Positions 12,052 to 36,015 of a stretch of DNA of 64,000 bases are shown piece by piece. Location of the stretch: NCBI RefSeq assembly GCF_003334315.1, contig NZ_QOWR01000007.1; one strand, written 5' to 3'. Origin of the DNA: Escherichia coli (GTDB lineage: Bacteria > Pseudomonadota > Gammaproteobacteria > Enterobacterales > Enterobacteriaceae). Each line of letters starts with the position of its first letter. Position 1 is the first letter of the stretch. The position numbers and the translations under genes were made by a program. The notes below the pieces were generated by a model. That model had not been told where the DNA came from, did not search any database, and saw only the letters and a list, made by a program, of their open reading frames with translations.

Positions 12052-13080
12052 TTACTGCTGGCGTAGCTGGAGATCCAGCGGCGTTTTGCTGGGTTCGCCG
12101 CCAATTTCTCGCGCCAGTTTCGGCACCAGATATCCGGACACCAGTGTCAGCAACTCACGCATAATCTGCCGTGCTTCGTCATCACTCACCATAAAATGCG
12201 CCGCGCCCTGTACTTTATCGAGCACATGCAGGTAATACGGCATCACGCCGGCATCGAACAACGCATTACTCAGGTTTGCCAGCGTTTGTGCGTTATCGTT
12301 CACACCACGTAACAGAACGCTCTGGTTCAGCAAAGTAACGCCCGCCCGGCGCAACTTAGCCATCGCCTGACGGAATGTTTCATATATCTCATTGGCATGG
12401 TTGATGTGATTCACCAGCAAGATTTGCAGCGTAGAATGTGAAAAGCGTTCAACCAGCGCATCTGTGATGCGTGCCGGGATCACAATCGGCAGACGACTGT
12501 GAATCCGCAGACGTTTGATATGCGGGATGGCTTCCAGTTGTGTGAGCAACCAGTCCAGCTCGTGATCTTTCGCCATCAGCGGATCGCCGCCGGAGAAAAT
12601 CATCTCGTCCAGTTCCGGATGCGCAGCAACATACTCAAGTGCAGTTTGCCAGTTACGCTTGTTGCCCTGATTTTCGGCATAAGGGAAGTGGCGACGGAAG
12701 CAATAACGGCAATTTACCGCGCAGCCGCCTTTGACCAGCAAAAGCGCCCGGTTGTGGTATTTATGCAACAAACCAGGCACTACGCTGTGCTGTTCTTCCA
12801 GCGGGTCGGTGGAGAATCCGGGCGCGATGGCAAACTCATCTTGCGAGGTAAGTACCTGACGCAAAAGCGGATCGTCCGGATTGCCTTTCTCCATGCGATC
12901 GATAAATGAGCGGGGCACACGCAGGGCAAACAGCTTTTTGGCGTTGCGTCCGGCCAACAGTTTTTCGTCCGCGTCTATATTCAAAAGACGCAGAAGTTCA
13001 TCAGGATCGGTCACAACATCGGCAAGTTGCGTTAACCAATCTTCTCTGGATGGGGTATTTAGGGTTACAATATGCGCCAT
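12052..13080 (-). CDS. epmB: EF-P lysine 2,3-aminomutase-like radical SAM enzyme EpmB (342 aa)
   Basis: Full-length ORF with radical-SAM CxxxCxxC motif (CAVNCRYC); divergent from efp. Confidence 0.95.
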   Translation of the reverse strand: MAHIVTLNTPSREDWLTQLADVVTDPDELLRLLNIDADEKLLAGRNAKKLFALRVPRSFIDRMEKGNPDDPLLRQVLTSQDEFAIAPGFSTDPLEEQHSVVPGLLHKYHNRALLLVKGGCAVNCRYCFRRHFPYAENQGNKRNWQTALEYVAAHPELDEMIFSGGDPLMAKDHELDWLLTQLEAIPHIKRLRIHSRLPIVIPARITDALVERFSHSTLQILLVNHINHANEIYETFRQAMAKLRRAGVTLLNQSVLLRGVNDNAQTLANLSNALFDAGVMPYYLHVLDKVQGAAHFMVSDDEARQIMRELLTLVSGYLVPKLAREIGGEPSKTPLDLQLRQQ

Positions 13081-13121: not shown

Positions 13122-13688
13122 ATGGCAACGTACTATAGCAACGATTTTCGTGCTGGTCTTAAAATCATGTTAGACGGCGAACCTTACGCGGTTGAAGCGA
13201 GTGAATTCGTAAAACCGGGTAAAGGCCAGGCATTTGCTCGCGTTAAACTGCGTCGTCTGCTGACCGGTACTCGCGTAGAAAAAACCTTCAAATCTACTGA
13301 TTCCGCTGAAGGCGCTGATGTTGTCGATATGAACCTGACTTACCTGTACAACGACGGTGAGTTCTGGCACTTCATGAACAACGAAACTTTCGAGCAGCTG
13401 TCTGCTGACGCAAAAGCAATTGGCGACAACGCTAAATGGCTGCTGGATCAGGCAGAGTGTATCGTAACTCTGTGGAATGGTCAGCCGATCTCCGTTACTC
13501 CGCCGAACTTCGTTGAACTGGAAATCGTTGATACCGATCCGGGCCTGAAAGGTGATACCGCAGGTACTGGCGGCAAACCGGCTACCCTGTCTACTGGCGC
13601 TGTGGTTAAAGTTCCGCTGTTTGTACAAATCGGCGAAGTCATCAAAGTGGATACCCGCTCTGGTGAATACGTCTCTCGCGTTAAGTAA
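13122..13688 (+). CDS. efp: Elongation factor P (188 aa)
   Basis: [47 protein letters not shown]..., including the modified-lysine loop KPGKGQA. Confidence 0.97.
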
Positions 13689-20065: not shown

Positions 20066-21043
20066 ATGAGCGAAACGGCATCCTGGCAGCCGAGCGCATC
20101 CATTCCTAACTTATTAAAACGCGCGGCGATTATGGCGGAGATCCGTCGTTTCTTTGCCGATCGTGGAGTGCTGGAGGTGGAGACGCCTTGTATGAGCCAG
20201 GCGACGGTAACCGATATTCATTTGGTCCCGTTTGAGACACGTTTCGTTGGCCCCGGGCATTCGCAGGGGATGAATCTCTGGTTAATGACCAGCCCGGAAT
20301 ACCATATGAAACGCCTGCTGGTTGCCGGTTGTGGGCCGGTATTCCAGCTGTGCCGCAGCTTCCGTAATGAAGAGATGGGGCGTTATCACAACCCTGAGTT
20401 CACTATGCTGGAGTGGTATCGACCGCACTATGATATGTACCGGTTGATGAACGAGGTGGACGATCTCTTACAACAGGTGCTGGACTGCCCGGCAGCAGAA
20501 AGCCTTTCTTATCAACAAGCTTTCTTGCGTTATCTGGAAATTGACCCGCTCTCTGCCGACAAAACGCAACTGCGGGAAGTCGCAGCGAAACTGGATTTGA
20601 GCAATGTTGCTGATACCGAAGAAGACCGCGACACGCTGCTACAATTGCTGTTTACCTTTGGCGTAGAGCCAAATATTGGCAAAGAAAAACCGACCTTTGT
20701 GTACCACTTTCCAGCCAGCCAGGCATCACTGGCGCAAATCAGTACCGAAGATCATCGGGTCGCTGAACGCTTTGAGGTTTATTATAAAGGTATTGAGCTG
20801 GCGAATGGTTTCCATGAATTGACGGATGCCCGTGAGCAGCAACAACGCTTTGAACAAGATAACCGTAAGCGCGCGGCGCGCGGTTTGCCGCAGCACCCCA
20901 TTGACCAGAATCTGATTGAAGCCTTGAAAGTCGGTATGCCTGACTGTTCCGGCGTGGCATTAGGTGTTGATCGTCTGGTGATGTTGGCGCTGGGCGCGGA
21001 GACACTGGCTGAAGTCATCGCCTTTAGCGTTGACCGGGCATAA
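20066..21043 (+). CDS. epmA: EF-P lysine beta-lysyltransferase EpmA (PoxA/GenX), class II LysRS paralog (325 aa)
   Basis: ORF 20021-21043 trimmed to ATG 20066 ([30 protein letters not shown]...); class II aminoacyl-tRNA synthetase catalytic-core motifs without an anticodon-binding domain. Confidence 0.93.
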
Positions 21044-29226: not shown

Positions 29227-29302
<76 letters not shown>

Positions 29303-29338: not shown

Positions 29339-29414
<76 letters not shown>

Positions 29415-32820: not shown

Positions 32821-34158
32821 ATGATGTATCGCATCAGAAATTGGTTGGTAGCGACGCTGCTGCTGCTGTGCACGCCGGTGGGTGCCGCGACGCTCTCTGA
32901 TATTCAGGTTTCTAACGGTAATCAACAGGCGCGGATAACGTTGAGTTTTATTGGCGATCCTGATTATGCGTTTAGCCATCAAAGCAAACGCACCGTGGCG
33001 CTCGATATCAAACAAACGGGCGTGATTCAGGGACTGCCGTTGTTGTTCAGCGGTAATAATCTGGTGAAGGCGATTCGCTCTGGAACGCCTAAAGATGCAC
33101 AAACGCTACGGCTGGTGGTCGATCTTACCGAAAACGGTAAAACCGAAGCGGTGAAGCGACAGAATGGCAGCAATTACACTGTCGTCTTTACGATTAACGC
33201 CGATGTGCCGCCACCGCCTCCTCCGCCGCCCGTGGTTGCGAAACGCGTTGAAACGCCTGCGGTTGTCGCACCGCGCGTCAGCGAACCGGCGCGCAATCCG
33301 TTTAAAACGGAAAGTAACCGCACTACGGGTGTTATCAGCAGTAATACGGTAACGCGTCCGGCAGCGCGCGCGACGGCTAACACTGGCGATAAAATTATCA
33401 TCGCTATTGATGCCGGACACGGCGGTCAGGACCCTGGCGCTATCGGCCCCGGTGGTACGCGGGAGAAAAATGTTACCATCGCCATCGCGCGTAAATTGCG
33501 TACTTTGCTCAATGACGATCCGATGTTTAAAGGCGTTTTAACCCGTGACGGGGATTACTTTATCTCGGTGATGGGGCGCAGTGATGTGGCACGTAAGCAA
33601 AACGCCAATTTCCTCGTGTCGATTCACGCTGATGCCGCACCGAACCGCAGTGCGACTGGCGCTTCCGTATGGGTGCTCTCTAACCGTCGCGCCAACAGTG
33701 AAATGGCCAGCTGGCTGGAGCAGCACGAGAAACAGTCGGAGCTGCTGGGTGGGGCGGGTGATGTGCTGGCGAACAGTCAGTCTGACCCCTATTTAAGCCA
33801 GGCGGTGCTGGATTTACAGTTCGGTCATTCCCAGCGGGTAGGGTATGATGTAGCGACCAGTATGATCAGTCAGTTGCAACGCATTGGCGAAATACATAAA
33901 CGTCGACCAGAACACGCCAGCCTTGGCGTTCTGCGCTCGCCGGATATCCCATCAGTACTGGTCGAAACCGGTTTTATCAGCAACAACAGCGAAGAACGTT
34001 TGCTGGCGAGCGACGATTACCAACAACAGCTGGCAGAAGCCATTTACAAAGGCCTGCGCAATTACTTCCTTGCGCATCCGATGCAATCTGCGCCGCAGGG
34101 TGCAACGGCACAAACTGCCAGTACGGTGACGACGCCAGATCGCACGCTGCCAAACTAA
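32821..34158 (+). CDS. amiB: N-acetylmuramoyl-L-alanine amidase AmiB (445 aa)
   Basis: ORF 32806-34158 trimmed to ATG 32821 ([25 protein letters not shown]...); contains an eight-proline linker and the Amidase_3 catalytic domain. Confidence 0.93.
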
Positions 34159-34167
34159 GGACGATTG

Positions 34168-36015
34168 ATGCCAATTCAGGTCTTACCGCCACAACTGGCG
34201 AACCAGATTGCCGCAGGTGAGGTGGTCGAGCGACCTGCGTCGGTAGTCAAAGAACTAGTGGAAAACAGCCTCGATGCAGGTGCGACGCGTATCGATATTG
34301 ATATCGAACGCGGTGGGGCGAAACTTATCCGCATTCGTGATAACGGCTGCGGTATCAAAAAAGATGAGCTGGCGCTGGCGCTGGCTCGTCATGCCACCAG
34401 TAAAATCGCCTCTCTGGACGATCTCGAAGCCATTATCAGCCTGGGCTTTCGCGGTGAGGCGCTGGCGAGTATCAGTTCGGTTTCCCGCCTGACGCTCACT
34501 TCACGCACCGCAGAACAGCAGGAAGCCTGGCAGGCCTATGCCGAAGGGCGCGATATGAACGTGACGGTAAAACCGGCGGCGCATCCTGTGGGGACGACGC
34601 TGGAGGTGCTGGATCTGTTCTACAACACCCCGGCGCGGCGCAAATTCCTGCGCACCGAGAAAACCGAATTTAACCACATTGATGAGATCATCCGCCGCAT
34701 TGCGCTGGCGCGTTTCGACGTCACGATCAACCTGTCGCATAACGGTAAAATTGTGCGTCAGTACCGCGCAGTGCCGGAAGGCGGGCAAAAAGAACGGCGC
34801 TTAGGCGCGATTTGCGGCACCGCTTTTCTTGAACAAGCGCTGGCGATTGAATGGCAACACGGCGATCTCACGCTACGCGGCTGGGTGGCCGATCCAAATC
34901 ACACCACGCCCGCACTGGCAGAAATTCAGTATTGCTACGTGAACGGTCGCATGATGCGCGATCGCCTGATCAATCACGCGATCCGCCAGGCCTGCGAAGA
35001 CAAACTGGGGGCCGATCAGCAACCGGCATTTGTGTTGTATCTGGAGATCGACCCACATCAGGTGGACGTCAACGTGCACCCCGGCAAACACGAAGTGCGT
35101 TTCCATCAGTCGCGTCTGGTGCATGATTTTATCTATCAGGGCGTGCTGAGCGTGCTACAACAGCAACTGGAAACGCCGCTACCGCTGGACGATGAACCCC
35201 AACCTGCACCGCGTTCCATTCCGGAAAACCGCGTGGCGGCGGGGCGCAATCACTTTGCAGAACCGGCAGCTCGTGAGCCGGTAGCTCCGCGCTACACTCC
35301 TGCGCCAGCATCAGGCAGTCGTCCGGCTGCCCCCTGGCCGAATGCGCAGCCAGGCTACCAGAAACAGCAAGGTGAAGTGTATCGCCAGCTTTTGCAAACG
35401 CCCGCGCCGATGCAAAAATTAAAAGCGCCGGAACCGCAGGAACCTGCACTTGCGGCGAACAGTCAGAGTTTTGGTCGGGTACTGACTATCGTCCATTCCG
35501 ACTGTGCGTTGCTGGAGCGCGACGGCAACATTTCACTTTTATCCTTGCCAGTGGCAGAACGTTGGCTGCGTCAGGCACAATTGACGCCGGGTGAAGCGCC
35601 CGTTTGCGCCCAGCCGCTGCTGATTCCGTTGCGGCTAAAAGTTTCTGCCGAAGAAAAATCGGCATTAGAAAAAGCGCAGTCTGCCCTGGCGGAATTGGGT
35701 ATTGATTTCCAGTCAGATGCACAGCATGTGACCATCAGGGCAGTGCCTTTACCCTTACGCCAACAAAATTTACAAATCTTGATTCCTGAACTGATAGGCT
35801 ACCTGGCGAAGCAGTCCGTATTCGAACCTGGCAATATTGCGCAGTGGATTGCACGAAATCTGATGAGCGAACATGCGCAGTGGTCAATGGCACAGGCCAT
35901 AACCCTGCTGGCGGACGTGGAACGGTTATGTCCGCAACTTGTGAAAACGCCGCCGGGTGGTCTGTTACAATCTGTTGATTTACATCCGGCGATAAAAGCC
36001 CTGAAAGATGAGTGA
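34168..36015 (+). CDS. mutL: DNA mismatch repair protein MutL (615 aa)
   Basis: [50 protein letters not shown]... (GHKL ATPase). Confidence 0.97.

Follow-up and report, generated by a model that had tools for sequence, protein, structure and literature searches.

Why does the gene for the N-acetylmuramoyl-L-alanine amidase AmiB carry eight consecutive proline codons, and does it matter that amiB, efp, epmA, and epmB all lie within 22 kb in Escherichia coli? We approached both questions in a stretch of 64,000 nucleotides of contig NZ_QOWR01000007.1 (assembly GCF_003334315.1), which we call the window. The ORF that holds the run matched the NCBIfam AmiB equivalog NF007751 with 977 bits, the cut-off being 532 bits, and the match covered residues 1-445 of 445. 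The gene carries the amiB annotation in each of the 5426 complete E. coli genomes; a RefSeq strain whose amiB is 100% identical has it in the order tsaE-amiB-mutL-miaA-hfq.

At positions 33208-33231, the window reads CCGCCACCGCCTCCTCCGCCGCCC. Counted from the ATG at 32821, the offset is (33208-32821)/3 = 129 codons, so the tract falls in frame, and both the DNA letters and the ORF bear out the first-pass annotation, which had placed eight prolines at codons 130-137 of amiB. A polyproline stalling motif takes at least three consecutive in-frame proline codons; amiB has eight CCN codons in a row, and AmiB was alone among the 61 ORFs of the window in having a proline run of at least three. When the window was searched for (CCN)8, we found 1 match, compared with none in 100 dinucleotide-preserving shuffles. 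From the 4.5% proline content of the window genes, ∼2e-5 runs of eight are expected per E. coli-sized proteome. The run is non-random and far above chance. Its codons comprise 4 CCG, 1 CCA, 2 CCT, and 1 CCC, and proline in the window genes is encoded by CCG (60%), CCA (16%), CCT (15%), and CCC (9%). Since the codon mix of the tract is close to this background, it is uninformative in itself. A +1 frameshift at the closing CCC-G was considered on the strength of a motif resemblance and set aside. On the minus strand, we considered and rejected an ORF of 104 amino acids (33106-33420) with an RRRRR run, which is the complement of the CCN codons and is left unannotated in RefSeq.

The position of the run within AmiB was read from Pfam matches and from an AlphaFold2 model built on a 42-sequence alignment (mean pLDDT of 81.6). 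The model predicts a helix at residues 2-15, within the putative signal peptide. This peptide has no twin-arginine motif, from which we infer Sec-type export. Sec substrates are exported unfolded and acquire their structure in the periplasm, and AmiB would be expected to do so as well. The AMIN domain, which is all-beta and serves in septal targeting and peptidoglycan binding, is modeled as strands from residue 23 to 127 with pLDDT of 86-95, the final strand spanning residues 118-127. The run begins three residues beyond this last strand and opens the interdomain linker. The linker comprises ∼64 residues (128-191) for which the model gives no secondary structure and a block pLDDT of 40-58, and it lies upstream of the crystallized E. 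coli fragment 8c0j (residues 190-422). The catalytic domain is modeled with confidence from residue 192; Pfam PF01520 matches residues 194-413 (E = 4e-48), the comparison with PDB 8c0j gave E = 5e-143, and all 42 homologues compared keep H200, E215, and H269 at the zinc-ligand positions. The coordinates of these features and of the EF-P genes are collected in Table 1.

Table 1. Features of amiB and genes for EF-P and its modification, with positions in the window.
Feature	Positions	Strand	Basis or detail
amiB CDS, N-acetylmuramoyl-L-alanine amidase AmiB, 445 aa	32821..34158	+	ORF, NCBIfam, RefSeq annotation
Putative signal peptide, ∼residues 1-22	32821..32886	+	Sequence, predicted helix; boundary inferred
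AMIN domain, residues 23-127	32887..33201	+	Pfam PF11741 at residues 27-112; AlphaFold2 strands 23-127
Interdomain linker, residues 128-191, predicted disordered	33202..33393	+	Model; gap between Pfam domains
Eight-proline run	33208..33231	+	amiB codons 130-137: CCG CCA CCG CCT CCT CCG CCG CCC
Amidase_3 catalytic domain, residues 192-418	33394..34074	+	Pfam PF01520, PDB 8c0j, model
epmB, lysine 2,3-aminomutase, source of EF-P beta-lysine	12052..13080	-	TIGR03821, 531 bits; divergent from efp
efp, elongation factor P	13122..13688	+	TIGR00038, 254 bits; Lys34 in VKPGKGQA (PGKGQ loop)
epmA, EF-P (R)-beta-lysine ligase	20066..21043	+	NF006828, 604 bits

A short motif of the same linker is worth recording for itself. 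NPF (N159-P160-F161, window 33295-33303) stands midway in an otherwise divergent linker. Of the 129 representatives, 8 keep it, namely those of E. coli, Yersiniaceae, and Sodalis and several more of enterobacterial type. Half of these (4 of the 8) are without any PPP, and within this small set NPF persists in lineages that have no run.

AmiB was reportedly among the in vitro test proteins of Doerfel et al. in 2013. According to a 2015 paper, no E. coli gene has a longer run of proline codons than amiB, with eight, and these codons show a sharp ribosome-footprint peak in wild type (PMC4402525). The first-pass annotation had called AmiB strongly EF-P-dependent and had proposed ribosome profiling in EF-P-pathway mutants as the check. 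Such profiling has been published for strain BW25113 (Supplementary Data 3B, Nat Commun 2024; PMC11611912), where each PPP motif of amiB (six, overlapping) and its PPV motif are given an asymmetry score, the ratio of ribosome density before the motif to that after it. The scores for amiB were 1.0-1.24 in wild type, 6.7-10.5 in Δefp, 1.0-2.9 in ΔefpL, and 3.8-6.7 in Δefp with EfpL overproduction. MG1655- and K-12-derived genomes match the 90 bp spanning the tract at 100% identity, and because the K-12 tract region is identical to that of the window, the published profiling is valid for this allele as well. The rise from ∼1 in wild type to 6.7-10.5 in Δefp confirms the dependence of amiB on EF-P, and "strongly" is a fair word for it, although other genes go further: cpxA (38.8), bcsB (31.6), and atpD (18.9) score higher in Δefp despite their shorter motifs (PMC11611912). 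The tract, its standing as the longest run, and its EF-P-dependent stalling are therefore already known from publications. For mutants of efp, epmA, or epmB, the searchable literature yielded no measurement of how much AmiB protein is made.

The coordinates and identities of efp, epmB, and epmA given in the first-pass annotation were upheld by profile matches, with NCBIfam equivalog scores that all exceed the cut-offs. The modification system in the window had also been described as complete, and this did not hold: a tblastn search with MG1655 EpmC, the Lys34 hydroxylase whose role in the EF-P modification pathway has been described (PMC12856214), gave no match in the window (best E = 0.25), and epmC of MG1655 lies at 2,444,203-2,444,751, ∼1.9 Mb from efp. 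The start of amiB is 11.8 kb past the end of epmA and 19.1 kb past the end of efp. Between efp and amiB are ∼18 protein-coding genes and tRNA-Gly genes, organized in several operons on both strands; these include ecnAB, sugE, blc, ampC, frdDCBA, yjeM, mscM, psd, rsgA, and orn, and further on the tRNA-Gly genes, queG, nnr, and tsaE. EF-P itself works in trans, and its target motifs number in the hundreds across the genome. Moreover, the order groL-efp-epmA-amiB is identical in ST131 strain EC958, where the tract reads PPSPPP, and a Yersiniaceae genome without the run shares the mscM-to-rnr block that surrounds amiB (compared over a 10-kb flank that ends inside mscM). An operon or cluster of EF-P with a client would be recognized by co-orientation together with adjacency, or by linkage that tracks the trait, and the arrangement found here is of neither kind. 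The description of AmiB as a client that is built in, at ∼20 kb from the EF-P system, finds no functional support. The placement of efp and epmB at 19 kb and of epmA at 12 kb from amiB looks like conserved enterobacterial gene order rather than a functional unit.

Two further observations were made among the neighboring genes. Two identical tRNA-Gly(GCC) genes stand in tandem on the plus strand between orn and queG (29227-29302 and 29339-29414), and the RefSeq annotations of CP53 and EC958 have three tRNA-Gly genes at this spot; the difference looks like copy-number variation of a tandem tRNA. Directly downstream of amiB, MutL (34168-36015, plus strand) contains a PPG motif (TPPGG) at residues 595-597. 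PPG belongs to the strong EF-P-dependent tripeptide class in a published motif table, and for mutL the available part of the published per-gene table has a DPN motif as its sole entry.

How constant the run is within the species was assessed with a 90-bp query centered on it, for which matches were collected in 5409 complete E. coli genomes. A match of at least 95% was found in 4506 of them; each of the four examined among these has P8, and the codons of the run differ only synonymously. Such changes in E. coli keep proline, for instance CCG to CCA and CCC to CCT. The other 903 genomes matched at less than 95%, and the matched stretch is 84 bp long rather than 90 in each of the 10 rows sampled, owing to an in-frame loss of 6 bp, or two codons, inside the run. 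Judged by match length and identity, P8 is present in ∼83% of complete E. coli genomes and the 6-bp-shorter form in ∼17%. The shorter form encodes P6 in FDAARGOS_1284, PPSPPP in ST131 EC958, NCTC9022, and TUM2367, and PPSPPS in strain 1290; LF82 was assigned to the 84-bp form from its span alone. The EC958-type 84-bp sequence occurs exactly in 695 genomes, and 156 more are within a few mismatches of it. In the papers searched, we found no description of this natural series of P8, P6, PPSPPP, and PPSPPS alleles. The series is the one modestly useful by-product of the analysis, and the other content of the finding matters little.

Beyond the species, P8 predominates among the best 120 protein clusters, which come from Escherichia, Shigella, and Citrobacter and have longest runs from P3 to P9. 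Most Citrobacter clusters hold P8 at ∼87% overall identity, and AmiB of Citrobacter enshiensis has P9. Among 129 AmiB-family representatives with a linker, taken at the 50%-identity level, 78 have no PP in the linker at all, and four or more consecutive prolines occur only in a few near relatives and one apparently convergent case. No proline run was seen in the linkers examined from Yersiniaceae and Sodalis AmiB. By these comparisons, the run is restricted to certain lineages and varies in length, in a linker that evolves fast. Since proline is kept through synonymous changes and through the divergence of E. coli and Citrobacter, some selection on the residues is suggested, and it would be mild. 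We also observed that AmiB of the Yersiniaceae type (three loci) is 567-568 amino acids long and has an extra C-terminal LysM domain, which is absent from E. coli AmiB; the order tsaE-amiB-mutL-miaA-hfq is conserved at these loci.

The length alleles bear on an earlier argument about the origin of the tract, namely that its mix of synonymous codons speaks against repeat DNA generated by slippage. A slippage-prone simple repeat would be a perfect or near-perfect array of one unit. The tract, with its four different codons, is not such an array, and Tandem Repeats Finder reported no array in it at a score of 30 or more. This part of the argument stands. The remainder does not, as the in-frame 6-bp polymorphism is common and the codons are used near background. 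The frequent indel implies that the tract does vary in length, plausibly by way of the short internal repeats CCGCC and CCTCC.

In our judgment, the eight prolines are likely to be a linker-opening segment, probably a stiff spacer, that needs beta-lysylated EF-P for its translation, as published, and whose proximity to the EF-P genes is coincidental. The run would form a short, stiff, polyproline-II-like spacer, or else a low-complexity linker element, between AMIN and the zinc amidase domain. EF-P with beta-lysyl-Lys34, made by EpmB and EpmA, would stabilize the P-site tRNA during its translation. Without EF-P, ribosomes stall on the run, as the published data record, because Pro-Pro peptide bonds form slowly. 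The shortening of the run in ∼17% of E. coli and its absence from Yersiniaceae and Sodalis imply that a spacer role would be weak or easily replaced, and on the same comparisons the run seems dispensable in nature.

Three other accounts of the run can be set against this reading. It is possible, if on balance doubtful, that the run has no selected role and arose by replication slippage and mutation, the proline-rich linker being free of constraint. Such drift fits the in-frame 6-bp indel inside the tract, the spread of run lengths from P3 to P9 across E. coli and Citrobacter clusters, the near-background codon usage, and the disordered, poorly conserved linker on either side. It fits less well with a tract that is an imperfect repeat and went unreported by Tandem Repeats Finder, or with the retention of P8 in ∼83% of E. 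coli and most Citrobacter clusters despite synonymous substitutions, and the general selection against polyproline motifs (PMC5811046) should erode a neutral run. Alternatively, the run might be a programmed pause, selected to slow ribosomes once AMIN has emerged, for co-translational folding or targeting, as is hypothesized in general for polyproline at the boundaries of domains. Polyproline motifs are underrepresented within domains and overrepresented between positions -2 and +9 relative to a domain end (PMC5811046), a range that includes the start of the AmiB run at +3 after the last AMIN strand, and the footprint peak is present even in wild type (PMC4402525). We nonetheless regard such a pause as improbable: a Sec-exported AmiB should fold in the periplasm, which leaves a cytoplasmic folding pause little to act on, and a wild-type asymmetry of ∼1 means that there is no lasting hold-up with EF-P present. 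In addition, a run selected for pausing would sit oddly with its shortening or interruption in ∼17% of E. coli genomes and its lack in most orthologues.

To the remaining account, in which amiB is kept near efp, epmA, and epmB as a client or as a sensor or reporter of EF-P activity, we give next to no credence. It has in its favor the 22-kb span shared by the four genes and the post hoc probability of ∼1% that the longest proline run would lie this near efp. Against this, the genes occupy separate operons and strands with unrelated genes between them, EF-P reaches its many motifs in trans, epmC is 1.9 Mb off, the gene order is unchanged where the tract is PPSPPP, and the amiB neighborhood is the same in run-less Yersiniaceae.

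We therefore retain the reading of the run as a linker-opening segment whose translation needs EF-P. AmiB is one among many ordinary EF-P clients, one that happens to have the longest proline run of K-12. One extension, which we rate as very unlikely, is that P8, at the start of the gene string amiB-mutL-miaA-hfq-hflXKC, works as a brake that responds to EF-P. If this were so, low EF-P would cause stalls in amiB that uncouple translation from transcription and bring on Rho-dependent polarity, read-through into mutL, miaA, and hfq would fall, and the shorter alleles (P6, or PPSPPP as in ST131) would weaken the link.

Among known systems, the XPPX motifs of CadC, CpxA, AtpD, and ValS are similar to amiB in their consecutive proline codons, in the pile-up of ribosomes in Δefp, and in its relief in wild type, and amiB is itself included in the published EF-P motif tables (PMC11611912). 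The amiB run is longer, with eight residues, than these XPPX motifs, yet its score (at most 10.5) is below that of several three-residue motifs. CadC has a regulatory output, and none is known for the amiB run. As a protein, AmiB belongs with AmiC to the AMIN amidases activated by EnvC and NlpD, which share the signal peptide, the AMIN domain, the flexible linker, and the Amidase_3 zinc domain with its autoinhibitory helix. A linker that begins with polyproline sets the proteins of Escherichia/Shigella, Citrobacter, and a few near relatives apart from other AmiB/AmiC. As for a spacer role, the proline-rich region of TonB is a rigid periplasmic spacer. The AmiB run is like it in that prolines crowd the stretch joining two modules of an envelope protein, for which an extended polyproline-II conformation would be expected. 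The two differ in that the AmiB run has only 8 residues (∼2.5 nm when fully extended) and a putative mechanical role, and in that it is a pure homopolymer, whereas TonB is built of Pro-Glu and Pro-Lys repeats.
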